Source: an uncultured Alphaproteobacteria bacterium
Lineage (GTDB): Bacteria > Pseudomonadota > Alphaproteobacteria > Rs-D84
DNA length: 64,000 bases
Direction of reading: 5' to 3'
Assembly (NCBI GenBank): GCA_947175875.1
Contig: CAMWON010000002.1
Span: 80,357-144,356, forward strand
The first letter of the stretch is position 1; each line of letters starts with the position of its first letter. The notes below the pieces were generated by a model. That model searched no databases, was not told the DNA's origin, and saw only the letters and a program-made list of their open reading frames with translations. Shown in pieces: positions 15,204 through 49,660 of the stretch. A program made the translations under genes and the position numbers.

Positions 15204-15207
15204 AAAA

Positions 15208-15240: not shown

Positions 15241-15291
15241 TTTATCGATTCGAATTATGGTATAATTTGTACCAAAAGGAGAACTTTTATT

Positions 15292-16539: not shown

Positions 16540-16612
16540 TCAATATGGCGCGCACCCCGGAATTTTCTTCCGGGGTGCCTTTGCATAGAAAGAATTCAAG
16601 GAGAGATGCAAA

Positions 16613-17326: not shown

Positions 17327-17372
17327 TCTTGCGTGGTGCGCCGTATTTTAATCTTTTTTGGCGCGCCCGCTT

Positions 17373-17381
17373 GTGGTATAA
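17373..17381 (+). promoter_or_regulatory. Extended -10 promoter element TGGTATAAT; leaderless or very short-leader transcript for the large Cys-rich protein
   Basis: tggtataat ends 14 nt before the ATG at 17395, and no RBS is visible. The same TGGTATAAT element precedes the OMP at 15292 and the Ros/MucR gene (about 33589). Confidence 0.4.
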
Positions 17382-17394
17382 TCAATATATAATA

Positions 17395-19719
17395 ATGAAG
17401 AAAATCGTTACGTGGATTTTTGCTTTTGCTTTTACGGCGCCGGCCGCCATGGCCGATACGCCCGTTATTTCACGTGCCATTCCGTCATCGGCTGCATCCG
17501 TTGATAACAGTGCGACGCGCGATAATTCAACCGTGTCGTCCGCGCGTACGACCGTGCGTCGCGATACGGCTCAAAAATCAAGCGCCGGCACAACAGCCGC
17601 GTCATCCGAGAAAGGGGCGACGGCCGTCCGCGCAACTCGCACCACGGACACGGCCACGCGCGCCGTGACACCGTCGCGCGGTGCGGCGGCGCGCATCGCC
17701 GCGGGCGACACGGCGACATCGGCACGTGACAATTTGAATGCTGCGGTGAACACGGTCGGGCGCAATGCGCGCGTGACGGCGGCATCCGTCAACAGCGACC
17801 CGGCGGTGCGCCGTGCGGGGGTGACGCTGCGACCCAGCACGGCCGAGGTTGGGGGCCGCGCAAAAATCGCCGGGACAAATATTCAGACAGGCTCTAACAT
17901 CGGGGAATCTGTGCGCGCGCTGCAATCACGTGCGGCGTCGTCCACAACAACCACGACCCAGAGAGAGACAATAGCTGAGGCCAAAGAACGCCTGGAGCAG
18001 ACGGCCGATTTGAACAAATCATGCCAGGAGCAGTACAACGACTGTATGGACCAGTTCTGTGCGGTTATCGATTCCAATCAGAAACGTTGCAGCTGCAGTG
18101 CAAACTTATCCAGATACACCAAGGTTGAGACGGCGGTCAAAGACGCCAATACCCAGCTGAACGAGGTGGCGCAGCGTATCCGATATGTCGGATTGTCGGC
18201 GGACGAGATTCGGGCAATTATGTCCGCGACCGAGGCGGAAGAGGCCCTGTCCGGTGCACGCGACACGACCGAGACGCGCAACATGCTGGCCGATATAGAA
18301 GATTTGATAAAGAATCCGTCGTCGTCGACGTCGGTGGCCGGCAACGACAGTTTTTCGACGCTGGATTTGAATCTTGATTTTTCCGACACGTCCAATTTAT
18401 TTAGTCTGGACTTCTTAAACAACAATTCCAGCAGCATGTCAAACCTGCGCGGGACGGATTTGTATAACGCGGCGAAAAAGCGCTGCAATTCCATACTTAG
18501 CCAGTGTAAAGACGCCGGTGCCACGCAACAGCAGCTGACGGCGAATTACGATTTGGCGATTGACAAGGACTGTATCGCGTACGAGCAGGGGTTAACAAAA
18601 ATGAACGAGACTTTGGTCTCGAACGTGCGCAGTGCGAATCTGATGCTGCAAAAGGCGCGTCTGGCCGTGCTGCAGAATAAAAACCAGTATGATGCAAAGG
18701 GGTGCATTTCGGCACTGGACACATGCATGACGGATGAAATGGTTTGCGGTGAAAATTATGAAAAATGTCTGGACCCGACCAAAAGATACATCGATGAAAA
18801 CGGCAAGGTTGTAATCGGCCAGGATATTACGTTTATCCGCGACTTTATGAAGTCATATGACAATTCTGCAATAAATACTGAATTTTTGAGAAATGCGGCG
18901 GCGTCTAGCAAGGTGGTCGGCATCGAGGCATGCAAGAAGAATATAAGCGGAGAGTCAGGTGAGAACAGTGCGGCCAACGGCGACGGGTGGTGCGCGGTTA
19001 AATATCTGCTGCAAAAGATTGGAACCGGCGTCCGCTCGACAGAGGGGTTGTGTCGGCCCGTTCTGGACAAGTGCCAGCGTTATACGTACGACAGCAACAA
19101 CAATTATCAGCCGTACAACGACATCGTCTTAAATTACATCCAGCGCGCGATGGTAAACATAAAGTCCGGCCAGGAAAAGACAATTGCGGATTATGCGTCG
19201 AACTGTATGGTTGATGTCGCGACATGCTATAACCAGCAGGTGAGCCAGGTGAATGCATGGACGTCGTCGGCCAGTGTCGGCAGCATTCGCAACGTTATGC
19301 GCGGTGCATGCCGGAACGTCGTGCTGACGTGCGGATATGCGATATTTGATGATTGCTCTACCGCATGTGAATATTTTCAGGACGAAAATCGTAAGAACCA
19401 GTGTTTGGCGAACTGTCCGAAAACATCAGGTGGCGAGGGTGATATTATAGATGCGGTTTCCGAAATGTTCTATAACAGCATGCTGTGTCCGGATAATTCG
19501 ACATACAATAAAACGTCTAAATCAGCAGCAACCGAAGATAACAAGAAACGATATGTCAATGATTTGTGCACATGCAATACGGGCTATGAACCGTGGAGCA
19601 GTCAGTGCGTTTTAATATGTCCCGATAACTCTGACCGTAATTCGTATGGTTCGTGTGTGTGCGATGAAGGCTATACCATGAAAAACGGTGTCTGCATACA
19701 AAATGCCAAAAGCGAATAG
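17395..19719 (+). CDS. Large secreted cysteine-rich protein (775 aa from the Met at 17395), unknown function
   Basis: Signal peptide MKKIVTWIFAFAFTAPAAMA. About 180 aa of Ala/Thr/Arg/Ser-rich low-complexity region, then a predicted helical segment, then over 40 Cys including the EGF-like C-terminus CTCNTGYEPWSSQCVLICPDNSDRNSYGSCVCDEGYTMKNGVCIQN. No recognisable enzymatic motif. Confidence 0.65.
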   Translation: MKKIVTWIFAFAFTAPAAMADTPVISRAIPSSAASVDNSATRDNSTVSSARTTVRRDTAQKSSAGTTAASSEKGATAVRATRTTDTATRAVTPSRGAAARIAAGDTATSARDNLNAAVNTVGRNARVTAASVNSDPAVRRAGVTLRPSTAEVGGRAKIAGTNIQTGSNIGESVRALQSRAASSTTTTTQRETIAEAKERLEQTADLNKSCQEQYNDCMDQFCAVIDSNQKRCSCSANLSRYTKVETAVKDANTQLNEVAQRIRYVGLSADEIRAIMSATEAEEALSGARDTTETRNMLADIEDLIKNPSSSTSVAGNDSFSTLDLNLDFSDTSNLFSLDFLNNNSSSMSNLRGTDLYNAAKKRCNSILSQCKDAGATQQQLTANYDLAIDKDCIAYEQGLTKMNETLVSNVRSANLMLQKARLAVLQNKNQYDAKGCISALDTCMTDEMVCGENYEKCLDPTKRYIDENGKVVIGQDITFIRDFMKSYDNSAINTEFLRNAAASSKVVGIEACKKNISGESGENSAANGDGWCAVKYLLQKIGTGVRSTEGLCRPVLDKCQRYTYDSNNNYQPYNDIVLNYIQRAMVNIKSGQEKTIADYASNCMVDVATCYNQQVSQVNAWTSSASVGSIRNVMRGACRNVVLTCGYAIFDDCSTACEYFQDENRKNQCLANCPKTSGGEGDIIDAVSEMFYNSMLCPDNSTYNKTSKSAATEDNKKRYVNDLCTCNTGYEPWSSQCVLICPDNSDRNSYGSCVCDEGYTMKNGVCIQNAKSE

Positions 19720-20490: not shown

Positions 20491-22560
20491 ATGCTAGAAA
20501 ATCTTAACGAGGCCCAGCGCGCCGCGGTGGAAACGACCGAAGGGCCGCTGTTGGTGCTGTCGGGGGCGGGAACGGGCAAGACGCGCGTGCTGACGACGCG
20601 CATCGCGCATATTTTGCAAAGCCGCCTGGCCATGCCGTGGCAGGTGCTGGCCCTGACGTTTACGAACAAGGCTGCGAACGAGATGAAGGCGCGCATCGCC
20701 GCGTTTGCCGCGGACGGTGCGTTTGATGCGCGCGATTTGTGGTGCGGAACGTTTCATTCTGTGGCGCTGCGGATTCTGCGCGCGAATGCGGACGCGGCGG
20801 GCCTGCGCCGTGATTTTATCGTATATGGCGACGACGACCAAAAGGCCGTGATAAAAAATATTTTAGCCGCCCTGGGAATGTCAACCAAGACCCCGGCCGA
20901 TTATGTGGAGCAGTTTTCGTCGGTCAAGGACAGGGGGCTGCGCGCGCTGGAATATTCCGACAAGGTGTATGCGGCGTATAACGCGGAACTGGCGCGGTTG
21001 AACGCGGTGGACTTTGGCGACATAATATTAAAAGTGTTGCAGTTGTTTGATACGCACCCCGAAATCCTCTTGCGGTATCAGAACCAATTCAAATACATCT
21101 TGGTGGACGAGTTTCAGGATACCAACCACGCCCAGATGGAATTTCTGGAAATGCTGACCCGCGGGGCGGAGCGGCCGAACATATGTTGCGTCGGCGATGA
21201 CGACCAGTCCATATATTCATGGCGCGGGGCGGAAATAAAGCACATTTTAAATTTCGACAAAACGTTTGACGCCGCGCGCGTAATCCGGTTGGAGATAAAT
21301 TATCGCAGCACGCCGAATATTTTGGGCGCGGCAAATTCGCTGATACGCCATAACCGCGGAAGACTTGGCAAGGATTTGCGCAGTGCGGATGAAAATACCG
21401 TCGGCGAGCCGGTGTATGTCTTAACCGTCCCCAGCGACTGGGACGAGGCGCGTGTCGTCGCCGACGCTGTCCTGCGCGATGCGGCGGATTTCGGCAAGTT
21501 TGCGGTTTTGATTCGTGCGGGCTCGCTGTCGCGTTTGTTCGAGGAAGAGTTTGCGCGCCGCGGCATTCCGTATCGTTTGATTGGCGCGACCAAGTTTTAC
21601 GACCGTGCGGAAATCAGGGACGCGATTGCGTACATACGCTTGATGGCGTATCCGTTTGACGATATTTCATTTTTGCGCGTAATCGGTCGTCCGCGCCGCG
21701 GTTTTGGCGCGGCGGCGATTGAAAAACTGCGCGGGGCCGGGCCGGATTTGATGTCGGGGCTGATGAATGCGAAACTGTCGGCAAAGCAGAGGGCGGCCGC
21801 CGATGAATTTTTGTCCGCGTTTGATTTCGACTGGTCCGCGATGGCGCCGATGGACGCGGCCAAGACACTTTTGGAGCGCGCGGGCTATTTCAAAATGTGG
21901 CGCGAATCCAAAGACGCCGATGCGTCGGACCGTCTTGCAAATTTGCAGGAATTGATAACCAACGTTATTTCCAAATACGACACAATCGCCGAATTTTTAG
22001 AGCAGGCCGCCCTGATGATGACGGACGACGATGCGGACGCGGCGGATGCCGGTGGCGCGGTATCCATAATGACGATACACGCGGCCAAGGGGTTGGAATT
22101 TGACACCGTGTTTTTGCCGGCCTGGGAGGAGGGGATTTTTCCCAACGAAAAGACCGTGGACGAGGGGGCGCTGGAGGAAGAGCGCAGACTGGCCTATGTG
22201 GCGATAACGCGTGCGCGCGTGCGTGCGGTTATCTTGAACGCAATGTCGCGTCGGTTGTTTGGGGAGCAAAAGTATAATTCGCCCAGTCGCTTTATCACAG
22301 AGATGGACGGCCGGTATCTGGATTTTCAGGGCGGCTCGCCCCGCGGTGCGTATGCGCCGCCGCGCGGTATTGCGACATCTTATACACCGGCGCCGCGTGC
22401 GGCGCGCGCGACGCCGAAAAATTCCGTGGGACGATTGGTGTCGCATGCCGATATGGGGCGGGGCGTTGTTATCGAAGACGGTGGCGAGATATTGACCGTC
22501 GCGTTCAAAAGCCGCGGAATAAAAAAGGTCGCGCGCGGCTATCTGACATTTGAGTCTTAA
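20491..22560 (+). CDS. uvrD: UvrD/Rep-family ATP-dependent DNA helicase
   Basis: MLENLNEAQRAAV...GPLLVLSGAGTGKTRVLTTRIAHIL (Walker A/motif I); DEFQDTN (motif II); QNYRST-like NYRSTPNIL; VSIMTIHAAKGLEFDTVFL (motif V/VI). The 20320 ORF start would overlap the dnaQ start, so the ATG at 20491 is preferred. A tattataat -10 lies in the divergent promoter region. Confidence 0.8.
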   Translation: MLENLNEAQRAAVETTEGPLLVLSGAGTGKTRVLTTRIAHILQSRLAMPWQVLALTFTNKAANEMKARIAAFAADGAFDARDLWCGTFHSVALRILRANADAAGLRRDFIVYGDDDQKAVIKNILAALGMSTKTPADYVEQFSSVKDRGLRALEYSDKVYAAYNAELARLNAVDFGDIILKVLQLFDTHPEILLRYQNQFKYILVDEFQDTNHAQMEFLEMLTRGAERPNICCVGDDDQSIYSWRGAEIKHILNFDKTFDAARVIRLEINYRSTPNILGAANSLIRHNRGRLGKDLRSADENTVGEPVYVLTVPSDWDEARVVADAVLRDAADFGKFAVLIRAGSLSRLFEEEFARRGIPYRLIGATKFYDRAEIRDAIAYIRLMAYPFDDISFLRVIGRPRRGFGAAAIEKLRGAGPDLMSGLMNAKLSAKQRAAADEFLSAFDFDWSAMAPMDAAKTLLERAGYFKMWRESKDADASDRLANLQELITNVISKYDTIAEFLEQAALMMTDDDADAADAGGAVSIMTIHAAKGLEFDTVFLPAWEEGIFPNEKTVDEGALEEERRLAYVAITRARVRAVILNAMSRRLFGEQKYNSPSRFITEMDGRYLDFQGGSPRGAYAPPRGIATSYTPAPRAARATPKNSVGRLVSHADMGRGVVIEDGGEILTVAFKSRGIKKVARGYLTFES

Positions 22561-23873
22561 GACGATTTCTTGCTGTCTTTGTAAATTTTCCAATATTTTT
22601 TCGCCTGGGCCTGCATGTTCTTGGCCAGTTTCGTGACGTCTTTGCCGAACTGCTGGCCCAGCGAGTCGTCAACACTGCCGCCCAAGTCTTTTGCCAGCTG
22701 CAGCGCCTTGTCGGCCAGGTATGCGACCAGACATCCGATAATCAGCGTTATCATAAATCCATCGTTGTCGATTGACGGGACGCTGGACGCCAGGTTCGCG
22801 TCCACCACGCCGGACAGTATCGCCGCGCACACCGCGACAACAATCGACAGTGATACGAAATAAATTGCGGCGTTTATGAATCTGTTTATCTGCGTGGTCA
22901 AACTTTCCGTTTTGAACAACCCAAGGAATCCGTTGAATATTGTTCCGGCGATTCCCTTGTACGACGTCTTGCCGACTGTTTCCGCAATCGCCGTGAACGG
23001 CAGCATGAATATTGTCAAAAACAGGTCTGCAATCACGCCCAGCGCCATCAACGCAAACTTCCATATGTTTATCAAAAATATTACAATAAATACGGCGCCG
23101 ATTAGGAATGTGAACATGCTGTGTCCGATGCCGGCCAGCATCCATTTCCACCCGGCGGCGACGGCGGTGTAAAAGAATCCGGACAGTCGCGTCGGCACGC
23201 ACATTATGTCGGCGGCGGCCCGGGCGTCGATTATCGCGTCCGCGGCCATGTGCGTCGCGGCATAGTCACGTATGGCGCCGCATGTGTCGGGCAGTGATGC
23301 GCCGGCGGTTGTTGTCACCGCGTTCAAAATCAAATCCGACATATAGGTGCCCACGGTTATTATCGGGCCCGCGACCAGCATAAAAGTTTGGGCCGCACCG
23401 TATTGAATGACGAACACCCATATTGCGATTGTAAAGCCTTTCTTTACGATTCCCTCAATCGATTTTTTTACCTCCACGGCGCCGATAATCATCTGATACG
23501 CCTCGAACCCCATCCAGAACAGGAACGCAACCGCGATGAATATCGTTGCGAAACGCACCAACGAACTGTCCAGAATGCGCCCGATAAGCGTCATTGCGTT
23601 CATGAATGCAAGGCCGATTTTAGCCTCGACCGGGACATAGTCCGCAACCAGCTGATTTTGAAATTCGGATTGGAAAAAATTTATATCCTCGGCCAATTCG
23701 CCGGTAAAGGCCTCTTTGTTATGGTCGGTCGCCCACACGCCATAGTCGCCGATGTCGCCGGTTGCGCCCGGCACGTTGCCGGCCGCCATTGCGCCGGGCA
23801 TAAGCAGCAAGGCTCCGACGGCGCATATCATTATTTTTGAAAATATTTTTTTCAGCCTCGTCATGTATGTCAT
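22557..23873 (-). CDS. Polytopic inner-membrane protein, VirB6/TrbL-like paralog A (putative)
   Basis: Start taken at MTYMTRLKK, where ATGA overlaps the stop of paralog B. Signal/TM1, a soluble segment of about 70 aa, 6-7 further TM helices and a Lys-rich hydrophilic tail. Same architecture as the four upstream paralogs. Confidence 0.5.
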   Translation of the reverse strand: MTYMTRLKKIFSKIMICAVGALLLMPGAMAAGNVPGATGDIGDYGVWATDHNKEAFTGELAEDINFFQSEFQNQLVADYVPVEAKIGLAFMNAMTLIGRILDSSLVRFATIFIAVAFLFWMGFEAYQMIIGAVEVKKSIEGIVKKGFTIAIWVFVIQYGAAQTFMLVAGPIITVGTYMSDLILNAVTTTAGASLPDTCGAIRDYAATHMAADAIIDARAAADIMCVPTRLSGFFYTAVAAGWKWMLAGIGHSMFTFLIGAVFIVIFLINIWKFALMALGVIADLFLTIFMLPFTAIAETVGKTSYKGIAGTIFNGFLGLFKTESLTTQINRFINAAIYFVSLSIVVAVCAAILSGVVDANLASSVPSIDNDGFMITLIIGCLVAYLADKALQLAKDLGGSVDDSLGQQFGKDVTKLAKNMQAQAKKYWKIYKDSKKSS

Positions 23874-25309
23874 GCCTTTTTGCCAAACGCCTTGGACATG
23901 GCGCCGAATATCTGGGTCGGGGCAGACCATATCTTTTTGCCCAAATCCTTGGTCCATGCGCCAAAGTCAAACTGTTCCTTGCCCGGCGCGGACAGTATCT
24001 TGTCAACGCGCGGCGCCACGGCGTAATAGTACAGCAGGAACAGTCCAATCATTAACATCAGGAAATCCCATCCGTTTGACATAAAGTCGAATGCGCCGGG
24101 ATAGTGTCGCTCAACCTCTGCGCGGCGGGCGGTGAAACAGTTCTTGAACGCGTCCGCGTCCATTTCGCCGTCCGAGAGGGCGACGCGTTCGCAATCTGAG
24201 AACACGCGCATTACGGACAATGTTTGCGCGTCCGGATTTTCCGGTGCGACCCCCATCATCGGCGGCAGTATCGCGCTGTACCCGTCGGCGGGGCCGGGGA
24301 AGAATTCGTCGGCCGCGTACGAGACGGTCGCGTAAATGATAAGAATTTTTAATGTTATTGCGATAATTTGTATGGCGGTTTTAACCAGCATGTTTATCGC
24401 GTTGCCGGTTATGCCCCCGGCCAGCTTCCATGTTTTTTCAAATGCCGCCGCCGCCAGCAGGAACGGCAGGAATATTATTAAAAATACCAATTTGAATACA
24501 ACCGACAAAATCTGAAAGAACAGGTCGAACCCGATAATCAAAAACATTATCACCAGCGCCAGTCCCGCCAGCCATGTGAACAGGCCGCCGCCCATGCCCA
24601 GCCATGCGTAATTCATCAATGCAAATCCGCCCGCGGCGCCCGCCAGCATCACGCTGTTCAAATTTCCGATAACGCACATGAACGGCGCCATTACCGGGTT
24701 TAATATATCCGCCGAATCCGCCGCCGCGGTTTCCAGCGCGCGGCATTGCGAGCCCTGGGTTGTGCCGGTCGCCGCCATTGACAGTTCGGCGCCCACAAAC
24801 ATTACGGGCGTGATTGTTATGTTGGCGACTGTTTTTAACGCGGTTGTCCCGCCCATGCCCAGTGCGCCGATAAACACGCCGACGAACATTATGCGCGCGC
24901 CCTGGCGCCATACTTTGTCGAACCATGCCTGAAATTCTAGTTTCTTTTCAGACGTGTCCAAAGTGGACGTTTTCTGGGCGGCGGCATAGATATGCCGTAT
25001 CGCCTCTATAAACAGGAACAGCCCGAACCCCAGTGCCAGCAGTATCCACAGCGTTTCCACTATGGCGTTCCAGAACATTTCCGTTGCGCGGCTGATTACC
25101 GCAAACAGCTCCGTTATATACCCGCACATAAAGCAGCCCGATGCGCCGGCGATGTCGTCGGATGCACCGATTGCCGACATGAAATTATCCATGCTGGTGT
25201 ATGTTAAAGCCGCGCCGCCAATCGACGACGACAGGTACCAAATTCCGATACCCAGCGCAATGGCACCCATGATTAAGCGAATGGCAATCATTATTAATTT
25301 CGCCTTCAT
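23870..25309 (-). CDS. Polytopic inner-membrane protein, VirB6/TrbL-like paralog B (putative)
   Basis: 479 aa. The N-terminal CFMCGYITELFAVIS motif is shared with paralogs C and E (CWGCPVFDRLFQVIS, CWSCDMFGAVMATMS). Multiple TM helices and a Lys-rich tail. Start ATGA-overlaps the stop of paralog C. Confidence 0.5.
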   Translation of the reverse strand: MKAKLIMIAIRLIMGAIALGIGIWYLSSSIGGAALTYTSMDNFMSAIGASDDIAGASGCFMCGYITELFAVISRATEMFWNAIVETLWILLALGFGLFLFIEAIRHIYAAAQKTSTLDTSEKKLEFQAWFDKVWRQGARIMFVGVFIGALGMGGTTALKTVANITITPVMFVGAELSMAATGTTQGSQCRALETAAADSADILNPVMAPFMCVIGNLNSVMLAGAAGGFALMNYAWLGMGGGLFTWLAGLALVIMFLIIGFDLFFQILSVVFKLVFLIIFLPFLLAAAAFEKTWKLAGGITGNAINMLVKTAIQIIAITLKILIIYATVSYAADEFFPGPADGYSAILPPMMGVAPENPDAQTLSVMRVFSDCERVALSDGEMDADAFKNCFTARRAEVERHYPGAFDFMSNGWDFLMLMIGLFLLYYYAVAPRVDKILSAPGKEQFDFGAWTKDLGKKIWSAPTQIFGAMSKAFGKKA

Positions 25310-26505
25310 TTTCCACCCGCCTTGTCATCTTTTTTACCGCCGTTTATAATCGTCGCCCCGATTTTTTTCATGGTTTGGGCCGCCGCCGTGGTCAGTTTCA
25401 TCGCGTCGTCGGCCAGCTGTTCGCCCAGTTTGTTATCCGCCGATACGTTGAACGCGCCAAGCACCATGTTCGTGACCTGGGGAATCTGGGAATAGATATA
25501 ATTTAGTACATATACCAGCACAATCGCACTGCCCAGGGTTATCTGTGCCAGATTGTCCTGGTCAAGGTCGGCTTCAAACACGCTGCCGTTTGTAATCAGC
25601 GCCATCAAATCCGCCGTGGATGCACCGGGTGCGGAAAAGAATTTTGCGATTATCACCATTATCACCGTATATGTCAGTACCGCCGCCGCCAGACCAATTA
25701 TGGCGTTTATGACTTTTTTGAACTGGTCCGTTCCGACATTTTTGCCCAGGTTTGCCATCCATTGCGGCGCGTCGGCCCCTTTGAACGAGACCAGTGTTAA
25801 CGACAACGGAAAGAAAAATGCAAAGAAAGTCATTGCGATAATCACGTCCGCAAAGTAAAAGCAGAACCGTACGAACAGCTTGAAAAATCCATAGAACAGG
25901 TACAGTCCCACAAAGAACATTATTATATGTTTTATCAATGCGCCGATGCCCAGTAATGCATCCCAAGAAAATGCGTTATTCATTACAACGATGCCCAGTT
26001 TCATATAGGCCTGGAACTGGGTTATCGTGGTTTTCATAATCAGAATTATCGTATCGCGCAGGGCGGGGCGATAGAATCCGTCGTCGGACATCTGCATCGG
26101 CTGATAGGTCACTTTTTCATTAATCGTTTCCGTGTCCATGCGCAGCATGCTTTGCGTGTATATGGCCGTTATCTGGGCGACGGGCTCGAACGTTATCGTT
26201 GTTACAAAACGCGGCAGCCACACGCCCAGCGACAAAAACGCAAACGCCACCAAAGAGTTTATGAATACCGGCCGTATGGATTTTGCATAGAACGGGTCGC
26301 CGTCCGCACCGCCCTTGATGTTTTTCCAGACCGCGGACACCACAAAAAATGCGAACAGTACGCAGAACAGTATCATGCAGAACACGACGAACTTGTCATA
26401 TACCGCGGCGGCGGCCATTGATATCACCTGAAACAGACGGTCAAACACCGGGCAGCCCCAACACTGCACCGCGCCGTCTATGATAGGGTTCATTAGCTCG
26501 TTCAT
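25306..26505 (-). CDS. Polytopic inner-membrane protein, VirB6/TrbL-like paralog C (putative)
   Basis: Start at MNELMNPIIDGAVQCWGC, where ATGA overlaps the stop of paralog D. N-terminal amphipathic segment then a TM bundle, as in VirB6 (F..F..L...I then TM1). Gly/Lys-rich C-tail. Confidence 0.5.
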   Translation of the reverse strand: MNELMNPIIDGAVQCWGCPVFDRLFQVISMAAAAVYDKFVVFCMILFCVLFAFFVVSAVWKNIKGGADGDPFYAKSIRPVFINSLVAFAFLSLGVWLPRFVTTITFEPVAQITAIYTQSMLRMDTETINEKVTYQPMQMSDDGFYRPALRDTIILIMKTTITQFQAYMKLGIVVMNNAFSWDALLGIGALIKHIIMFFVGLYLFYGFFKLFVRFCFYFADVIIAMTFFAFFFPLSLTLVSFKGADAPQWMANLGKNVGTDQFKKVINAIIGLAAAVLTYTVIMVIIAKFFSAPGASTADLMALITNGSVFEADLDQDNLAQITLGSAIVLVYVLNYIYSQIPQVTNMVLGAFNVSADNKLGEQLADDAMKLTTAAAQTMKKIGATIINGGKKDDKAGGK

Positions 26506-27794
26506 TTCTTTTTCTTTATCCAGCCTGCGGCCCGACCGATTGACTTGCCCCAGTTTTTGGCGCCGCTCCATGTCTTTTTCGCGTCGCCTGTCACCTGGGT
26601 GTAGAGCTTGTCGCTGGCCGGGGAATACATTTTTAAGCGCTCGCGCGTTAGGTCAAATATGCGCAGCATTAAATAAAACGTCATTATCGCGGACAGCCAC
26701 AGTATCGAATGCTCGCCAAATCCCATGGCGTGGTTTGCCACCTGGGGGACGTTGGATGCGGCACTGCCGCCGGCGGCGACAACGAACACGGAACTGTTCC
26801 AGTTGAACAGGGCGCGCACAATCGCGACGTTTATCGTTAAAATAAACGCGCATGCAATCATTGTTATCACCAGGGACTGCAGCGCCTTGGTAATTCCGGA
26901 AAATGCCGGCCATATGTCGAACCATTTGTCCGGGTTCTTGGGCTTTACGACCCATGTCAAGACCTGGAACGGGTACAGAATCAGCGCCATTCCAAATTCA
27001 AATATCGCCTGAATAATCAGCAGCGCCATAAACAGATTACACCCGACAAACGCCGTCACAATCAATATGCCCGAGACCAGATTCATAAAGTCTTCGCCGC
27101 CGTGCGGTATTAGTGTTATCAGTCCGCGCAGCCCCCGGTGTATAAAATCAAATCCGCGCTTTATCATCTGGTTGTTCGTGTGGCTGATGTCGGCGATTGG
27201 CTGGGTTAAAAATTCACAGCTGCGCTCCGATATCCATTCCTTTTCCAGAATGTCCGGCGGGCATTCGACCGGCGCGGCGGCCGATGCCGCGATGCCGCCC
27301 GTGTTTATTCCGTCGGTGATTGCGCGCGTATAGATTGCACCGAATTCCAGAAACGGATTGACCAGCCATTCCGTCACATATACCGGTTTTATCTGCAATA
27401 AAACCACCGCCGCGATTATTGCGCGCAGGCCGGGCTTTAACATGTTCTGGGCGATGGTCATGCTGTCCGCCTTGCCGGATGCCATTTCGCCGCCGCCGGA
27501 AAATCCAAAGAACGCGACCCATTTTGCGGGGAAATACATTTTCACCAGATACAGGCCCATCGATATCCCCAGAAAGCCCCATATTAAAATGTATATGATG
27601 CCGTCGCCGTTTCCGACAAAGAATTCATATCCGCCCGTTGCGACCGCCATGAACGCGTCCAGCACCATCGGCACGAACGGCGCCAAATTAAAGCTGTCGA
27701 CGATGCCCCAGTCGGCATGCGCCGCGCACGGCGCCATAAGTGCGGCAAAAAACAGCGCGGCCGACAAAATTTTTTTTATTCTGGTCATATACAT
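26502..27794 (-). CDS. Polytopic inner-membrane protein, VirB6/TrbL-like paralog D (putative)
   Basis: 430 aa; signal peptide MYMTRIKKILSAALFFAALMAPCAAHA; periplasmic segment, TM bundle and KKKK tail. First gene of the four-gene minus-strand run. Confidence 0.5.
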   Translation of the reverse strand: MYMTRIKKILSAALFFAALMAPCAAHADWGIVDSFNLAPFVPMVLDAFMAVATGGYEFFVGNGDGIIYILIWGFLGISMGLYLVKMYFPAKWVAFFGFSGGGEMASGKADSMTIAQNMLKPGLRAIIAAVVLLQIKPVYVTEWLVNPFLEFGAIYTRAITDGINTGGIAASAAAPVECPPDILEKEWISERSCEFLTQPIADISHTNNQMIKRGFDFIHRGLRGLITLIPHGGEDFMNLVSGILIVTAFVGCNLFMALLIIQAIFEFGMALILYPFQVLTWVVKPKNPDKWFDIWPAFSGITKALQSLVITMIACAFILTINVAIVRALFNWNSSVFVVAAGGSAASNVPQVANHAMGFGEHSILWLSAIMTFYLMLRIFDLTRERLKMYSPASDKLYTQVTGDAKKTWSGAKNWGKSIGRAAGWIKKKK

Positions 27795-27817
27795 ATATAT
27801 TTATTGTTTTCAATTAT

Positions 27818-27841
27818 ATCACATTTGAGGGAAAATGTGAT
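27818..27841. promoter_or_regulatory. Perfect palindrome ATCACATTT-n6-AAATGTGAT in the 60-bp divergent intergenic region between paralogs D and E; candidate operator
   Basis: 9-bp arms with a 6-bp spacer, centred in an AT-rich divergent promoter region (27795-27854). Confidence 0.45.
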
Positions 27842-27854
27842 ATACTTAAAAGCG

Positions 27855-29150
27855 ATGGGGCGCCTAAAAAAATTTTGGATAGTGTTTTTGTCGTTTCTGC
27901 CGCTGTCGGCGGGGGCGGTGGCGCCGTTTGTCGTGGGCGGCATCGCCGGGGCGGTCGGAATTGCGGGCTTTTCAATATTTAGAAGTACGTCGCCCGTCAA
28001 CATGGCGGACGCGCTGTCGTTTTTTTCCAGCTGCTGGTCGTGCGACATGTTCGGCGCCGTTATGGCGACAATGTCGAATTTATTGCCAAAGGCGTACGAT
28101 GCGATTGCGGGCGTCGTGATACCGTTTGCGGCGGCGCTGTCGGCGATATGGTTCGCGTGGAAGATTTTTTCAGGATTTTTAAACGCCAAGATTGACGACC
28201 CGTGGTCCGTCACCGGTGCGTTCGGAACGCATCTGATAAAGCTGGCGGCGGTATGTGCATTGCTGATGGCGCCACTGCCGCGGCTGATAAGCGATATTGT
28301 TATTCAGCCGATATTTACTGTCGGCCTGTCGGTAAATCATATCGCGGCCGACATGGCGGGCGAGGGGAGGTTCAACGAATGCGTCGTCGCAACCGCACTG
28401 GCCGATCCGGTTGTGGTGGATGCGAACGCGGCGGCGGCGGGCGCGTTTTCGCCGTATCTGCGCCACAACCTGGCGTGCGAGGTTGGAAATGTACACCAGA
28501 TGACGGGCCTGGGCATGACGGTTGGATGGACCATGATGAACATGGCGTTTAATTCCAAGTACATGCACAAGATTATGTGGGGCGTGCCGATTTTCCCAAA
28601 TGTCCCGATTTTCTTTTGCGGTCTAATGATAATAGTGCTGTTCTTTTTCGCATTGCTGCCGATACCGATATATTTTCTGGAGATATTTATCACACTGGCG
28701 ATGGATTTGATAATGCTGCCGCTGATGCTGCTGGGGTGGCTGTTCAAGGGGTGGGCCATATTCCCCCAGGGCGGCCGCACGATTAAACAGATGATAGACG
28801 ACGTGATAAAGGGCACGGTCGGCATCGCGATGACGGGCGTGTTTTTGACGTTCTCGATAATGTTTTTGAACGCGGTGTTCGGAAACTGGGGCGGGGCGAC
28901 GCGGTTGGCGGTGGCGCTGGAGAAAAACGATTCGATGTTACTGATGGACGGCCTGTTGATGCGCAACGACAGTATTGTCACAATTATCCTTATGGGGATT
29001 TTCATTGCGATGTTCATGAACATGATTCCCGCGCTGGTCAAGACTTTGTTTAGCATATCGATATCCGACAAGTATTATGAAACAACGAAAAAGAACATAA
29101 ACATAGTATGGGGAAACATGAAAAAATGGTACGCCGCGTTAAAAAAATAA
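27855..29150 (+). CDS. Polytopic inner-membrane protein, VirB6/TrbL-like paralog E (putative), divergent from A-D
   Basis: 431 aa from MGRLKKFWIVFLSFLPLSAGAVA (signal). CWSC motif, then Trp-rich periplasmic loop, 6+ TM helices and a Lys-rich C-terminus. Confidence 0.5.
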   Translation: MGRLKKFWIVFLSFLPLSAGAVAPFVVGGIAGAVGIAGFSIFRSTSPVNMADALSFFSSCWSCDMFGAVMATMSNLLPKAYDAIAGVVIPFAAALSAIWFAWKIFSGFLNAKIDDPWSVTGAFGTHLIKLAAVCALLMAPLPRLISDIVIQPIFTVGLSVNHIAADMAGEGRFNECVVATALADPVVVDANAAAAGAFSPYLRHNLACEVGNVHQMTGLGMTVGWTMMNMAFNSKYMHKIMWGVPIFPNVPIFFCGLMIIVLFFFALLPIPIYFLEIFITLAMDLIMLPLMLLGWLFKGWAIFPQGGRTIKQMIDDVIKGTVGIAMTGVFLTFSIMFLNAVFGNWGGATRLAVALEKNDSMLLMDGLLMRNDSIVTIILMGIFIAMFMNMIPALVKTLFSISISDKYYETTKKNINIVWGNMKKWYAALKK

Positions 29151-30041: not shown

Positions 30042-30749
30042 ATGGATTTGCTGATAAAAGGTTCCATAGAATTAAACAAGATGTTCGCCGCGCTGCAGCG
30101 TACGGCGGACGGTCTGCGCCGTGATTTCGGCGAGGTGGAAAACCTGCAGCAGTCATTGCGCGGCGCCCGCGACTTTGTCGCAAAGGCGTCCGCCCGGATA
30201 GAGGAAAGCATTCTGCGCGATTTGCTGCTGGTCCGTCCTGCGGCGGGGCTGCTGACCCCGAACGTCAGCCGTGACGGCGACGGCCGCGATGAATTTGTTT
30301 TGGCGATTTCCGGTGCGTCGAACTTTGTTCGCGCAAATCCGCATTTTGCAATATCGCTGGCACTGCGTTCGAATGACGAAACGAAAATCGCGCTGGTATA
30401 TTCCCCGATTGAAGACAGATTATATTATGCCGAAGACGGCCGTGGCGCATACGTGTTTTCCGCGTTTCATTCCGCGCGCTTAAAGGTGTCGAATTTATCA
30501 GACCCGGCAGATTTGACAATCGCATACAATACGTCCGACATTCGTGCGCCGCGCTGTGCAAACCCGCGCCGTACTGGTTGCCCGGCATTGGATTTGGCAT
30601 GGGTTGCCGCGGGTAAGTTTGATGCGTTCGTATCCGATGCGTTGGATTGGGCCGAAATTGCGGCCGGCGATCTAATTGTGCGCGAGGCATCGGGCCATAT
30701 CGAAATGGGGGCGGACTTAATCGCCACCAACGGCAAGGTTGAGTTATAA
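30042..30749 (+). CDS. Inositol monophosphatase-family protein with a divergent metal-binding motif
   Basis: ...RIEESILRDLL (EE motif); FVLAISGASNFVRANPHFAISLAL aligns to the canonical IDPIDGTxNFxxGxPxFAVSIAL block but the Asp-Pro-Ile-Asp-Gly-Thr residues are replaced; WAEIAAG matches W(D/E)xAAG. Confidence 0.6.
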   Translation: MDLLIKGSIELNKMFAALQRTADGLRRDFGEVENLQQSLRGARDFVAKASARIEESILRDLLLVRPAAGLLTPNVSRDGDGRDEFVLAISGASNFVRANPHFAISLALRSNDETKIALVYSPIEDRLYYAEDGRGAYVFSAFHSARLKVSNLSDPADLTIAYNTSDIRAPRCANPRRTGCPALDLAWVAAGKFDAFVSDALDWAEIAAGDLIVREASGHIEMGADLIATNGKVEL

Positions 30750-30921: not shown

Positions 30922-31019
30922 TCATGCAATTTTCATTACAGTGATTGTTAGAAGTCCGGTCGGGCGATGACGATATATTTAAGAAGACGCGATTCGTCGC
31001 CGCCCGTTATAATTAAATA

Positions 31020-31115
31020 AAGACCACCGGAAAATTCAGGTGGTCGGGGTGTTTAGAAAATCGACAAGTAGCGACCCCGTTGGCCTTCGGCGAACCTTAT
31101 AACCAACGGCACCCC
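31020..31115 (+). ncRNA. Candidate structured RNA element (nested GC-rich helices); identity and strand unknown
   Basis: Long-range 10-bp complement GGTCGGGGTG...CACCCCGACC enclosing CCGTTGG...CCAACGG, which encloses a gccTTCGggc-like hairpin. Adjacent hairpin accacc-ggaaaattca-ggtggt. No ORF with sensible composition. Coordinates approximate. Confidence 0.25.
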
Positions 31116-31287
31116 GACCATGTGTGTCAAGGCATAACGGTGCAAAAACGCAACCGCATACGGATTTCAGATAGATGCAATTTGCACCGTACTTGTCGGG
31201 CTTTCTAAAGGCCCCGAACCCAAATTCCCATTCAGGTTCATTTATTATTATACATTACATTCGGGTAAATCACAAGAATAGATTCAT

Positions 31288-46317: not shown

Positions 46318-46421
46318 TCGGAAAAGATTCTGGGCGCCCGGAACCGCGTTGTATTCAGATATTCTTTGTTATGGGAATATTTTTATGATATAATAAGCGT
46401 AACTGTATGGGGGAAGTATTC

Positions 46422-47195
46422 ATGAATAATGACGACAATTTGGATTTATTGGATTTGGATGACGGCACGTCTGTGGACACACTGCCGGATGCCGCGCCGT
46501 TTGTCACGCCGCGCCCGAAAAAGCCTTGGCTGCTGCTGGGGGTGGGGGTGCTGGTCATCATACTGGCGACATATATAATTGTGCGCACAATCGGCGGCGA
46601 TTCGTCTTCTTCGATAGAGGTGGATTTGGACGCCCCCGCGGTTGTTGTTGATACACCCGTTGATACGATAGATGTGCCCCCGTTGCCAGTGGATATGCCG
46701 ACCCCGGTCGCGCCGGCCCCTGTTCAGGTTGCGCCCGCACCGGCGCCGACACCGGCCCCGGTGGCAAAACCTGCGCCGGCCCCTGAAAATGTTGGTGCGC
46801 CCGTTCGCGTGATAGAGGATAGAAAACCCGTGACGTTTAATCCGGACAAGCCGGCCCTGGCGGCAAAACCTGCGGCCAAGCCTGCGCCGAAACCCGCGGC
46901 AAAGAAACCGGCGGCAAAGCCCGCACCGAAAAAGCAGGTTGCGACGGCCAACGGTTCCTGGTATGTACAGTTCGGTTCATATAGTACGCGCGCGCTGGCG
47001 GAAAGCGCCGGTAAAAAACTGCGCGCCGGCCATGGCAGTCTGTTCAATGGCCGCCAGTTTGTTGTTCTGGCCGCGGTGATGAAAGACGGCAATACTCTGT
47101 ATCGTCTGCGCGTTCCGTTCGCAACGTCGGCGGATGCAAACAGTTTCTGTCGGAATGCGAAATCCGACGGTGTTGACTGCTATGTCGCAAAATAA
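46422..47195 (+). CDS. SPOR-domain (peptidoglycan-binding, division-associated) protein
   Basis: N-terminal acidic region, one TM, Pro/Ala/Lys-rich linker and a C-terminal SPOR fold (WYVQFGSYSTRALAE...YRLRVPFATSADANSFC). Start at MNNDDN. Confidence 0.7.
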   Translation: MNNDDNLDLLDLDDGTSVDTLPDAAPFVTPRPKKPWLLLGVGVLVIILATYIIVRTIGGDSSSSIEVDLDAPAVVVDTPVDTIDVPPLPVDMPTPVAPAPVQVAPAPAPTPAPVAKPAPAPENVGAPVRVIEDRKPVTFNPDKPALAAKPAAKPAPKPAAKKPAAKPAPKKQVATANGSWYVQFGSYSTRALAESAGKKLRAGHGSLFNGRQFVVLAAVMKDGNTLYRLRVPFATSADANSFCRNAKSDGVDCYVAK

Positions 47196-47207: not shown

Positions 47208-47501
47208 ATGAGACCCGGATTGTGGCAAATTGTATTGGTTATCGTTTTGATTTTCATTCTGTTCGGCAGCAGCAAGATTCCGGACATGATGAAAAATCTG
47301 GCGGGTGGAATAAACGTCTTTAAGAAAGAATTGAAAGACGACAAATCGCAAGAGGCGCCAAAGAAAGCGCAGGCGGTCAAAACGGTGGCAAAGAAGCCCG
47401 CGGCCGTAAAGAACGCGGCGAAAAAAGCCCCTGTTAAAAAGGCGCCCGTGAAAAAGGCGGCGGCTAAAAAGCCTGTGGCCAAAAAGACCGCAAAAAAATA
47501 A
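47208..47501 (+). CDS. tatA: Twin-arginine translocase subunit TatA/E-type
   Basis: MRPGLWQIVLVIVLIFILFGSSKIPDMMKNLAGGINVFKKEL has the TatA TM + amphipathic helix signature. Lys/Ala-rich tail. Confidence 0.8.
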   Translation: MRPGLWQIVLVIVLIFILFGSSKIPDMMKNLAGGINVFKKELKDDKSQEAPKKAQAVKTVAKKPAAVKNAAKKAPVKKAPVKKAAAKKPVAKKTAKK

Positions 47502-47520: not shown

Positions 47521-47555
47521 AAGTGCGACCGGTGTCGGTCGCACTTGTTTTTTTT
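47521..47555 (+). terminator. Rho-independent terminator after tatA
   Basis: aagtgcgaccg-gtgt-cggtcgcactt, a 12-bp stem, followed by gtttttttt. Confidence 0.65.
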
Positions 47556-47709
47556 ATCCGCTTAAATTATACTGAACGTGAATTCAACAGGGATGTTGGT
47601 TCTGGGACTTGAAAATCCCATAAGCAAACGGCGCAATGCGTCGTAATCCGACATGAAAATGCGGCGTGTTTTACGTTGCATGTTTTGTACCCGGCTGTTG
47701 GCCGGGGAT

Positions 47710-47812
47710 CTGTGATTATAAGGGCGCGAACGCGCCCGAAGGTCACAGGGTCATTTTTGCTTATGATTTTTCAAATCCCCGGCCGCCATTTCTTTGGCGG
47801 TATTTCTTTTTA
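47710..47812 (+). promoter_or_regulatory. Structured 5' leader of Cys-rich paralog 2 with two terminator-like hairpins, the second ending about 30 nt before the ATG
   Basis: ctgtga-[ggcgcgaacgcgcc]-tcacag with tcattttt (about 47710-47758), then ccgcc-atttctttg-gcgg + tatttcttttt aacc (about 47783-47815), then RBS aaaaaggagcgggtag ATG. Confidence 0.35.
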
Positions 47813-47832: not shown

Positions 47833-48603
47833 ATGAAAAGAAAGCATAAAACGTGTTTTGTCGCAATCGGAATAATAATTGGCCTGGGGGGCGTGGGGCG
47901 CGCGGCAACCCCAACAGTCGAAACGTGCGCAGAAGCTTTTGCAACCGAAGCGCCGGAATGCATATCGTGGGATTTTTTTACTTCCGGTATGGGGAATGGG
48001 GGGGAAATGTATATTTGTTCATGCGCAGAATGCGAGTCCGGGTATCATAATGACGGTTCAAGTAAATATAAATATTATAAAAATGATTATTTTTATATGT
48101 CTAATTCTTGTAATAAAGCAACAGAAACAGGTGGTGGCGGGGGTGGCACAACAACCAAAACGTGCAGCAAGGGTTCATTGTGCACAATGTGCAAGGGGCC
48201 GAATGTGACCATAAACGGTCAAATATATTGCGGCCTGTGGGCCGATACCAACGGGGTTAAAACCTGTTCGGCATCATCTGTTGGGGCGAATGTCGCATAT
48301 ACCATGTCGCCGTGTTGCGATTCTGATGGCAAAGCGGTTGGAGGCGCGACGGGTTGTTACGTTATATCATGCAAGACGGGGATGGTTGCGTCCGATGCGA
48401 AAACGTCATGTGTTTGTGATGTCGGATACTATGGAACAACGACCACGGGTTGTACGCGGTGTCCTGCGTCCGGCGGTACGTACGGGCTGACCAGCGGCAA
48501 GGGCAGTACGCAAATTACCGATTGTTATTTTCCGGCCGGTCTATTGATTAAAGACACCACCGGTACGTATCAATATACCCAGGATTGTTATTATTCTAAT
48601 TAA
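47833..48603 (+). CDS. Secreted cysteine-rich protein, paralog 2 (conserved C-terminal Cys module)
   Basis: Signal peptide MKRKHKTCFVAIGIIIGLGGVGRAA; Gly-run GGGGGGTTT. C-terminus CVCDVGYYGTTTTGCTRCPASGGTYGLTSGKGSTQITDCYFPAGLLIKDTTGTYQYTQDCYYSN aligns with paralogs 1 and 3. Confidence 0.6.
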   Translation: MKRKHKTCFVAIGIIIGLGGVGRAATPTVETCAEAFATEAPECISWDFFTSGMGNGGEMYICSCAECESGYHNDGSSKYKYYKNDYFYMSNSCNKATETGGGGGGTTTKTCSKGSLCTMCKGPNVTINGQIYCGLWADTNGVKTCSASSVGANVAYTMSPCCDSDGKAVGGATGCYVISCKTGMVASDAKTSCVCDVGYYGTTTTGCTRCPASGGTYGLTSGKGSTQITDCYFPAGLLIKDTTGTYQYTQDCYYSN

Positions 48604-48604
48604 A

Positions 48605-48633
48605 ACAAACCCGCCGTTTGGCGGGTGTTTTTA
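48605..48633. terminator. Bidirectional terminator between convergent Cys-rich paralogs 2 and 3
   Basis: aaacaaa cccgcc-gtttg-gcggg tgttttt: the hairpin core cccgccgtttggcggg flanked by A-run and T-run. Confidence 0.6.
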
Positions 48634-49299
48634 CTTTGTGTAGCAGCATTCTTTATTGAATGTCCCCGAGCCAGTTGAATCAGAAAAAGATGTGCCGGCT
48701 GGTATGCAGCATGTCGTTATATCTGTTGTGCCGATTGCATTTGTGCCCCGTGTGCTGCCTGATCCCGGACATAGTGTGCATACAGTGGATGCGCCACTGC
48801 CGCCGGACTTGTAATAACCGGCTGCGCAGCCGTATTCTGTTGTTGCCGGGCGTTCTTGCGAGCAGTAATAATAATTGCGCGAATCACTGCCGTTAAACGA
48901 TGCGACTTGTCTGTGTACAACATAACCGGAATATGTCGACCATTTACTGTACATGGGTTCAGATTGTTGTATGCCGCATGCGCTGCATGCGGATTCGCCC
49001 CCGGAATAACAGAAATATTTTGCGCCGTTTGCATCTGTACCGATAAGGCAGTCGCTAAGGTTGCTGTTATAGTCATCAGTTGTTGGCGGGCAGGTTGAAA
49101 AGTGAGTCGTATTACTGCATTCAATATGTTTGCAATCACATTTTCCGAGTATGTAATCGCCGGGGCCGCTGCTGCCTTCATAGCAGTATGAACCTATTGT
49201 TGATGCTGTGGTCGCAATCAGCCGATATGTGGCTGCATCGGTTACATTTGGTGTGGCAATTGACAGGCATATTGCCGGTATAAAAAGTTTCTTTATCAT
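48631..49299 (-). CDS. Secreted cysteine-rich protein, paralog 3 (conserved C-terminal Cys module)
   Basis: Start at MIKKLFIPAICLSIATPNVTDA (signal). C-terminus YGCAAGYYKSGGSGASTVCTLCPGSGSTRGTNAIGTTDITTCCIPAGTSFSDSTGSGTFNKECCYTK. Confidence 0.6.
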   Translation of the reverse strand: MIKKLFIPAICLSIATPNVTDAATYRLIATTASTIGSYCYEGSSGPGDYILGKCDCKHIECSNTTHFSTCPPTTDDYNSNLSDCLIGTDANGAKYFCYSGGESACSACGIQQSEPMYSKWSTYSGYVVHRQVASFNGSDSRNYYYCSQERPATTEYGCAAGYYKSGGSGASTVCTLCPGSGSTRGTNAIGTTDITTCCIPAGTSFSDSTGSGTFNKECCYTK

Positions 49300-49324: not shown

Positions 49325-49355
49325 AAAAAGAAAACCACTAAATAAATTCAAGTGG
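49325..49355 (-). promoter_or_regulatory. Terminator-like hairpin + U-run immediately upstream of the RBS of Cys-rich paralog 3 (leader attenuator candidate)
   Basis: Minus-strand reading: ccact-tgaatttattt-agtgg ttttcttttt aacc aaggaaaacggggga...ATG. It shares the tttctttttaacc tail with the paralog 2 leader. Confidence 0.35.
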
Positions 49356-49631
49356 TTGGAGGTTCGAAACAATTATAGAGAATTGCGGGCTTATTTATAT
49401 ATATCACCCCCCTCCAACCGCGGGGTTGGGGGAATAGCACCACGTATCAAATGAAAGTGCCGTGCGAACGTAGGTTGCCCGGCAGCGTCAATTTGTCAGT
49501 GGTGTTTTTTTCTTGTCTTGATGCAAGACACTCTATAACGGGTTTCGACGCCCCGCCGCAGGAATATCCCGCGGCGTTTTTATGTTGGCATAATGTATGC
49601 GGGCTGTAAAGAAAAATGTGCAAAAAAATAC

Positions 49632-49660
49632 CCCGCCGTTTGGCGGGTGGTTTTAATTCT
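49632..49660 (-). terminator. Rho-independent terminator downstream of dksA (minus strand)
   Basis: Same hairpin core cccgccgtttggcggg as at 48610, with a T-run on the minus strand (the plus strand reads caaaaaaata before it). Confidence 0.55.

Follow-up and report, generated by a model that had tools for sequence, protein, structure and literature searches.

In a 64,000-nucleotide stretch of DNA from an uncultured alphaproteobacterium of the Rs-D84 lineage (contig CAMWON010000002.1; this whole stretch is hereafter called the window) we studied three genes, A, B and C, whose small exported products end in a common cysteine-rich tail. Sequence comparison indicates that this tail is a divergent Ephrin_rec_like/TNFR-type ladder unit followed by a family-specific closing hairpin, and on this reading it is neither a new domain nor a new fold. 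The novelty is that a cysteine-ladder domain known mainly from eukaryotes occurs here in a bacterial variant. Each gene is also preceded by a structured leader RNA of switch-like design that appears to be a covariation-supported relative of the small RNA sRNA-Xcc1, undescribed so far, and that may be a more novel object than the protein family. On balance we favor the view that the exported cysteine-ladder proteins, under control of the leader, work outside the cytoplasm in binding a partner or host or as a coat facing it, and we hold this to be fairly probable.

The C-terminal module and its family

The three genes and their modules are as follows.

47833-48603, + strand: gene A (K2L25_04715), open reading frame (ORF) of 256 amino acids (aa) with 22 Cys; module hidden Markov model (HMM) E 4e-30
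48631-49299, - strand: gene B (K2L25_04720), ORF of 222 aa with 18 Cys, convergent with A; module HMM E 6e-35
14574-15203, + strand: gene C (K2L25_04555), third paralog, ORF of 209 aa with 17 Cys; module HMM E 2e-36
48400-48600, + strand: C-terminal module of A, residues 190-256 (hmmsearch coordinates)
48634-48843, - strand: C-terminal module of B, residues 153-222
14988-15200, + strand: C-terminal module of C, residues 139-209 (hmmsearch)

An earlier note on this DNA, made from the sequence alone, had described these three ORFs as carrying signal peptides, and the starts it gave are correct. Each begins with an ATG preceded by a Shine-Dalgarno (SD) sequence (GGAGCGGG for A, GGGGGA for B and CAGGAG for C) and followed by a classical n-h-c signal peptide. 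Reading the sequences by eye, without a predictor, we placed cleavage after MKRKHKTCFVAIGIIIGLGGVGRA in A, MIKKLFIPAICLSIATPNVTDA in B and MKFNILTFGFAIMLLVSSAYA in C, with Ala, Ala and Asp as the respective first mature residues (sites GRA/A, TDA/A and AYA/D). Lipoprotein anchoring was discarded on the same reading because the lipobox Cys is absent from the cleavage site. In A the signal peptide is followed by a variable Cys-rich N-terminal region and then by the C-terminal module. GenBank annotates this gene as a protein of 168 aa from a later start (K2L25_04715, MDE6482091.1), a version that lacks both signal peptide and first Cys-rich region. The longer form of 256 aa is the better gene model because it has a signal peptide, an SD sequence and the leader directly upstream. 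The exact database matches of A, B and C all bear the label 'hypothetical protein' (metagenome-assembled genome (MAG) 'Alphaproteobacteria bacterium', K2L25 tags). A and B are indeed convergent, with 27 bp between them, and the counts of 22, 18 and 17 Cys replace the 18-26 originally reported for each protein.

The last ~70 aa of the three proteins align, and the Cys motif quoted for them by the earlier note proved correct. An HMM of the three tails, searched against the six-frame translation of the window, matched A, B and C only, with E values of 1e-30 to 1e-36 and a next best hit at 0.13; this separation places the likeness of the tails far beyond chance. The ladder comprises a first unit, C-AA-GYY ... 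C, a second unit, C-P-SSGG-x-G ... C, and a closing hairpin, Y-IPAG-x4-D-x2-G-x-Y-x4-C-YY-x-x, which forms the last residues of the protein.

Pfam and NCBIfam scans of A, B and C were empty (for Pfam even at E<=10), and a Pfam scan of the first 22 homologs returned chance matches only. A second search with the module profile recovered short relatives of 75-119 aa that consist of a signal peptide and the module. Ten of these pass PF07699 Ephrin_rec_like (formerly GCC2_GCC3) at 25.3-38.4 bits for a cut-off of 23.1, and K2L25_03320, encoded in the same MAG as A, B and C, scores 33.5 bits on this family. Sub-threshold matches of the short relatives to TNFR_ELAPOR1_6th, TNFR_c6, NCD3G and Giardia variant-specific surface protein (VSP) families were also obtained. 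The PF07699 match spans C-P-x-G-T-Y ... C-x2-C-P-SSGG ... C. When the profile of the window-type module (A3) was compared with that of the short relatives (A9) by hhalign, the two aligned over 65 columns with a probability of 99.7% (E 4.8e-27), and the stretch C-A-A-G-Y-Y ... C-x2-C-P-SSGG ... C of the window module fell on the PF07699-matching stretch; profile A3 also matches the PF07699-passing short relatives at E 1e-16 to 1e-5. The second half of the PF07699 Cys spacing, C23-x2-C26-P-SSGG ... C46, is kept in >94% of 273 members, and the first CxxCP is reduced in the window-type module to C7-A-A-G-Y-Y, with a single Cys. A, B and C do not reach the PF07699 gathering score of 23.1 bits and give no match to this family even at E<=10.

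The tail that the earlier note had called a novel domain, and which it did not recognize, thus maps to PF07699 by transitivity, through the ten short relatives at 25-38 bits and the hhalign probability of 99.7%; a mapping onto a described family is what that note had itself named as speaking against novelty. The idea of a new cysteine domain without relation to any described family can draw on the lack of any Pfam or NCBIfam match of A, B and C at E<=10, on a best PDB hit, EphA4, at E about 0.7, and on the last 25 residues (YIPAG...CYYxx), which lie outside the PF07699 match. It is nevertheless largely refuted, and we regard it as very improbable, given ten close relatives above the curated PF07699 cut-off over the homologous stretch, the hhalign result, and fold matches exclusively to TNFR-type cysteine-rich domains (CRDs). 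These fold matches come from AlphaFold models, for which the predicted local distance difference test score is 88 over the full protein (gene C) and around 80 over the module. Matches of the module model are weak and are all to TNFR-type CRDs (RANK, HVEM, TNFR1, TNFR2, LTbR, OPG, CD27 and DR6); the full-length model also matches poxvirus CrmE. The fold class is therefore probably that of a TNFR/ephrin-receptor-type cysteine ladder instead of the EGF/knottin-like arrangement that the spacing had first brought to mind, for which neither profiles nor folds gave a match. The PDB sequence search with the module profile, which placed the EphA4 Cys-rich region at E about 0.7, also returned an astrovirus capsid (E 0.012-0.12, 42 residues), which was judged a compositional chance match since its Cys correspond at two positions only.

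That such a module is unusual in bacteria was borne out: our literature search for PF07699 or GCC2_GCC3 returned eukaryotic subjects throughout, and the domain is described as having emerged in ancient eukaryotes, with rare bacterial cases read as horizontal gene transfer (PMC6993872). Profile A3, run against 1.84 billion cluster representatives, has at least 1,098 matches at E<=1e-3, of which 285 reach E<=1e-10. A bacterial family of >1,000 clusters is unusual for a domain treated as eukaryotic with rare bacterial cases, and it represents a large bacterial expansion of that domain. Among the matches listed (150), nearly all are 150-290 aa long with the module at the very end; the module stops <=4 residues from the C-terminus in about 272 of 286 non-identical members, and signal peptides are present in nearly all family members.

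Taking one genome per GTDB species, we found 49 loci with family genes (L001-L049), nearly all in MAGs of uncultured gut Alphaproteobacteria labelled 'Alphaproteobacteria bacterium', 'Ca. Enterousia' or 'Rickettsiales', from roe deer, rabbit, mouse, human, chicken ('Ca. Enterousia intestinigallinarum') and termite gut ('Rickettsiales'). The lineage-specific secreted Cys-rich family proposed in the earlier note is thus real. There are several loci per genome, with up to four family genes clustered. The three paralogs counted at the outset are all those in the window, and the number falls short for the MAG, which holds at least two further, shorter ones, K2L25_00315 (98 aa) and K2L25_03320 (112 aa). 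One locus, L024 (CAVGNU010000012.1), is labelled as a Bacteroides fragilis cleanbin; besides a family gene behind a type-2 leader it has a type-1 leader before a helicase-like gene, and the contig is most likely mis-binned alphaproteobacterial DNA. The order Rs-D84 with 'Ca. Enterousia', which is represented among these relatives, is widespread in animals and uncultured; its members have reduced genomes of <1 Mb, do not respire and probably depend on a partner, which has not been identified (PMC12306168).

The family evolves 3-10 times faster than its flanking genes, yet under purifying selection. Between paralogs, identity is 38-67% in the tail and 17-21% in the mature N-terminal part. C is 50% identical to its syntenic ortholog in a related MAG, compared with 81-95% for its neighbors (FtsK, two barrel-like proteins, a 774-aa protein and DnaQ). 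Ratios of non-synonymous to synonymous substitution (dN/dS), which are rough because dS is near saturation (0.4-1.2), amount to 0.33 for C and 0.29 for B as against 0.03-0.13 in the nine neighbors compared. In the syntenic loci L001 and L028, the space between dksA and tatA holds an ortholog of B and none of A.

An alignment of 273 modules shows fixed Cys at positions 7, 23, 26 and 46 (99-100%) and at position 67 (94%); where Cys67 is lost, a Cys stands at 63 or 70 instead. The minimal proteins have six conserved ladder Cys, one of them just upstream of the module. Positions 47 and 68 are usually Tyr/Tyr, and both are Cys in 21 modules, one is Cys in 0 and neither in 252 (Fisher p 8e-32, on sequences that are not independent). 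In the window this gives CY..CY in A and CC..CC in B and C. Cys47 and Cys68, an optional seventh and eighth Cys of the ladder, are thus gained or lost strictly together, replacing a Tyr/Tyr contact, which is the behavior of a disulfide. Among long members (>=140 aa), 41 have an odd and 3 an even Cys count when the first 30 residues are required to be free of Cys; relaxing this requirement to the first 18 residues gives 83 and 6, respectively. In short members the count is even in 32 and odd in 5. The odd count in long members is independent of the cleavage site, and the mature forms of A, B and C have 21, 17 and 17 Cys. This indicates one free thiol in long members, and since the module takes an even number of Cys, the unpaired one would lie in the variable N-terminal domain. 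Such a thiol points to a disulfide between molecules or to some other covalent bond.

The leader RNA upstream of the family genes

The ~150 nucleotides (nt) before the ATG of A, B and C share a common design, a leader of about 105-120 nt that occurs in two types. The evidence for each copy in the window includes the score of a covariance model (R1) and, for C, a minimum free energy (MFE) fold.

47686-47805, + strand: leader RNA of A, type 2; R1 33.9 bits, E 4.6e-5; type-2 alignment covaries
49330-49434, - strand: leader RNA of B, type 1; R1 68 bits, E 2e-13; covariation; alternative pairings
14441-14544, + strand: leader RNA of C, type 1; R1 110 bits; covariation; MFE fold

In 5' to 3' order the leader comprises a short hairpin (a:a'), two inner hairpins, a GC-rich hairpin with a U-run and the SD sequence. 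Segment a' is also perfectly complementary to a segment a'' located 47-65 nt downstream (a'/a'' being GGCCGGGGAT/ATCCCCGGCC in A, GGTTGGAGG/CCTCCAACC in B and GGTCAGGAGG/CCTCCTGACC in C), and the GC-rich terminator hairpin with its U-run overlaps the 3' end of a''. In the leader of A, for example, the 5' hairpin is followed by helix P1 (GGCCGGGGAT/ATCCCCGGCC), two inner hairpins, the terminator hairpin with U-run, the SD sequence and the ATG. Most family genes in related loci carry a leader, either of type 1, as B and C, or of type 2, as A. In the window and loci L001-L049 together, the type-1 covariance model matches 43 copies strongly, at 51-112 bits, and picks up about 20 of type 2 at 23-45 bits.

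Counted on a model-fitted alignment, 95.1% of the cells of the type-1 alignment are paired compared with 85.9% in shuffles, of which 0 of 500 reach the observed value; slid controls give 19-56%. Double changes are seen in 15 of 24 pairs of the type-1 helices (90 cells), and G-U pairs occur on this strand only. Both alternative pairings are kept in all 43 copies, the a:a' hairpin with a median of -12.5 kcal/mol and the a':a'' duplex with a median of -17.9 kcal/mol. The type-2 leader has covarying helices of its own. Segments a and a'' resemble an anti-SD sequence (CUCCUG and CCUCC) and a' resembles an SD sequence. In the MFE folds the spare anti-SD copy, segment a in the leader of C and a'' in that of B, pairs with the true SD.

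No Rfam family was found for the leaders at the gathering threshold. Six of them give full-length sub-threshold matches to sRNA-Xcc1 (RF02221) at 32-46.5 bits for a cut-off of 53, namely the leader of A at 32.1 bits and five leaders in related loci at 32.5-46.5 bits. We also collected leaders from metagenomes by their P1 pattern and filtered them with the covariance model, which yielded 58 leaders (L050-L129). A module gene lies downstream in 24 of about 52 readable ORFs of this leader-first sample; the remaining ORFs mostly encode other small Cys-rich proteins with signal peptides, and one encodes an XRE-like regulator. In the GTDB loci the leader also precedes three XRE-like genes, a helicase and a glycosyltransferase. 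Of note, it stands before members of a non-secreted family of 74-103 aa in L017 (2976-3079, - strand), L043 (8213-8312, + strand), L026 (1418-1516, - strand) and L083 (3231-3336, + strand), with the motif M.KLLIDA.YYGN.MR.AR..L.I...AA.LL.MSK..Y..CE.G. By eye these proteins have the look of an XRE-type helix-turn-helix, and they might act as a protein partner of the leader or belong to its regulon. Within the window, an orphan type-2 copy (31019-31135, - strand; R1 32.8 bits, E 8.6e-5) is located between a suhB-like gene (30042-30749, + strand) and fabD (31316, + strand), with no ORF after it on its strand; it may represent a remnant or a small RNA in its own right.

Two other explanations of these sequences were discarded. 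A leader peptide is not supported, since a reading of the alignment shows neither a start codon nor an ORF conserved behind the SD-like a'. The idea that the inverted repeats form an integron attC site or an invertible DNA switch was rejected because they differ between loci yet stay complementary, because the G-U pairs are confined to one strand and because the inner hairpins covary; the GTTRRRY core was absent from the leader repeats in a by-eye check. We read the leader as a probable cis-acting riboregulator or attenuator of a secreted-protein regulon, and it may also release a short RNA. Genes for secreted Cys-rich proteins would thereby form a regulon, and for sRNA-Xcc1-type RNAs the leader suggests an action in cis on the neighboring genes that they precede.

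Transcription units and neighboring genes

A, B and C are single-gene units, each with its own leader, SD sequence and terminator. The terminator scan placed one further feature between A and B.

48609-48626, both strands: bidirectional intrinsic terminator hairpin between A and B

Terminator-like hairpins also follow tatA (47521-47546) and dksA (49632-49647), and together with the hairpin between A and B they indicate that A and B are separate transcription units. The terminator between A and B (48609-48626) and that of dksA (49632-49647) have in common a 16-nt palindrome, CCCGCCGTTTGGCGGG.

Gene C belongs to a conserved cluster between ftsK and dnaQ (14574-19719; also in L005). This cluster includes two signal-peptide proteins ending in F (15292-16539 and 16613-17326), for which a Pfam scan returned no family and which are probably outer-membrane barrels, and a 774-aa protein with 32 Cys (17395-19719). 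The earlier note had given the latter 775 aa and a related module, which was not borne out: the module HMM does not match it and hhalign gives 0.2%, so that we excluded it from the cysteine-ladder family. Its tail contains generic CxCxxGY EGF-like motifs (Pfam EGF_Tme5 at E 0.013, below threshold), and it belongs to a separate unannotated family with >=60% identity across >100 clusters, 1,035 matches and no Pfam assignment; NCBIfam gave nothing usable for it either. Distant homologs of this protein (24-25% identity) flank family genes in L012, L019, L027 and L048.

Elsewhere in the window, five adjacent genes at 22557-29150, four on the minus strand and one divergent, encode proteins of 420-480 aa with 7-8 predicted membrane spans, 22-26% pairwise identity and no Pfam family; by analogy, this array recalls the tandem VirB6/TrbL-like arrays of Rickettsiales. 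TatA (47208-47501, + strand) has a 45-residue Lys/Ala/Pro-rich tail with a histone-H1-like HC2 match below the cut-off (E 3e-5), and the SPOR-domain protein encoded before the TatA gene (46407-47195, + strand) has a long Ala/Pro-rich linker. The peptidoglycan-related genes of the window encode this SPOR protein, a LysM-M23 protein and a lytic enzyme.

Proposed role and likeness to known systems

We infer that an extracytoplasmic binding or coat function toward a partner cell or host is the most likely one. After Sec export the proteins would fold into protease-resistant, disulfide-stapled rods acting outside the cytoplasm as binding or coat proteins for the partner cell or host. The conserved ladder would provide a common scaffold or docking end, and the variable N-terminal domain, with one unpaired Cys in the long forms, would set specificity. 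Expression would be gated by the shared leader RNA, in which the SD mimic a' has two possible partners, a on its 5' side and a'' on its 3' side; the intrinsic terminator overlaps a'', and the anti-SD copy left free is predicted to pair with the real SD of the gene. In this role the family would be the most obvious candidate for the molecules that touch the unidentified partner or host of these gut Alphaproteobacteria, and a concrete handle for pull-downs, antibodies and localisation.

Several points weigh against this interpretation. A Sec signal in a diderm brings a protein to the periplasm only, and the outer membrane has still to be crossed. Every relative is annotated 'hypothetical protein', and the PF07699 membership of A, B and C rests on transitivity, as they give no direct Pfam match even at E<=10. 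The true SD is sequestered in both leader states in the MFE folds. The roughness of the dN/dS values and the use of a model-fitted alignment for the covariation counts belong here too. Finally, no disulfide-forming enzyme was seen in the 64-kb window, and the paper on the lineage describes no respiratory chain to reoxidise DsbB (PMC12306168).

A bolder version, which we consider unlikely, is that the bacteria display on their surface a leader-controlled repertoire of eukaryote-type ladder proteins, comparable to VSPs. The variable heads would bind or evade the host or partner, the free thiol would tether the proteins covalently and the sRNA-Xcc1-like riboregulator would choose among cassettes; the domain would perhaps have been captured from a eukaryote.

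Alternatively, the proteins could be secreted antibacterial toxins or bacteriocin-like peptides directed against gut bacteria, with the tail as the killing or receptor-binding part. They are small, exported, disulfide-rich, multi-copy and rapidly diversifying, and their leader also stands before XRE-like regulators and a helicase, kinds of genes that are common in accessory and defence regions. However, A, B and C are single units among housekeeping genes, with no adjacent immunity-like small ORF or dedicated exporter; polymorphic toxins usually vary at the C-terminus, whereas here it is the N-terminus that varies, and the fold class indicated is that of a binding scaffold, not of a known pore former or enzyme. 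We therefore find this explanation unlikely.

Structural envelope proteins linked by intermolecular disulfides, as in the Cys-rich outer-membrane complex of Chlamydia, would account for the odd Cys count of long members, which leaves a free thiol for cross-links. They would also fit the clustering of C with two beta-barrel-like F-ending proteins and the conserved 774-aa Cys-rich protein, homologs of which flank family genes in four other loci. Yet structural envelope proteins are usually conserved, and the family genes are the fastest-evolving at their loci, next to a conserved 774-aa protein and conserved barrels; paralog number and N-terminal architecture vary freely, and the window contains the peptidoglycan-related genes (SPOR, LysM-M23 and lytic enzyme). 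An envelope role of this kind also seems improbable to us. Binding of a metal (Zn, Cu or Fe-S) by the Cys in the periplasm, instead of disulfides, is suggested by the very high Cys content with CxC and CxxC spacings and by an anaerobic habitat with an uncertain oxidising pathway, but the strictly paired gain and loss of Cys47/68, the disulfide ladders of the homologous TNFR/Ephrin_rec_like modules and the lack of a conserved His or Asp co-ligand pattern make it highly improbable.

Our preferred reading, of extracytoplasmic binding or coat proteins, can be set beside several known systems. The closest is PF07699 Ephrin_rec_like, found as Cys-rich repeats in Eph receptors and many eukaryotic surface and matrix proteins. 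The family shares with it, in part, the CxxCPxGxY...CxxCP spacing, short members passing the cut-off over module positions about 4-46, and the extracytoplasmic, disulfide-stapled setting. It differs in that A, B and C are below detection, with the first CxxC-P degraded to x-C-A-A-G-Y-Y, in the extra C-terminal hairpin YIPAG..D..G..CYYxx, which always comes last, and in the occurrence of one module at the end of a small bacterial signal-peptide protein in place of tandem arrays in large receptors. TNF-receptor CRDs, including viral decoys such as poxvirus CrmE, the one fold class that the module model matched, are elongated ladders of small disulfide units that bind proteins. Giardia VSPs and ciliate surface antigens (PF03302) resemble the family in their Cys-rich repeats, the GYY motif, their occurrence in gut-dwelling organisms and a fast-diverging multigene repertoire with a conserved C-terminal end and a variable N-terminus. 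The PF03302 cut-off of 31.4 bits was not reached, the best score being 19.6 bits (E 5e-4), from short relatives only. In contrast to Giardia VSPs, the proteins are far smaller and end in CYYxx without a hydrophobic tail, transmembrane anchor or CRGKA tail.

The RNA counterpart, sRNA-Xcc1, is an 88-nt sRNA that directly precedes symE, in the same orientation, in integron cassettes of Xanthomonas (bioRxiv 10.1101/2025.06.18.660453). The leaders align with it end to end (model positions 1-87), sharing its outer helix, its pair of inner hairpins and its C-rich/U tail at the 3' end, and they too lie directly upstream of a co-oriented protein gene. They differ from it by the extra 5' hairpin that competes for P1, by the intrinsic terminator just before the SD, and by their position before genes for secreted Cys-rich proteins, not symE, in gut Alphaproteobacteria. 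As a functional analogy, the small secreted Cys-rich effectors of fungi and oomycetes are also signal-peptide-bearing, disulfide-rich, lineage-specific, multi-copy and fast-evolving proteins of partner-dependent organisms; they have no sequence or fold relationship to the family, which belongs to diderm bacteria with an outer membrane to cross.

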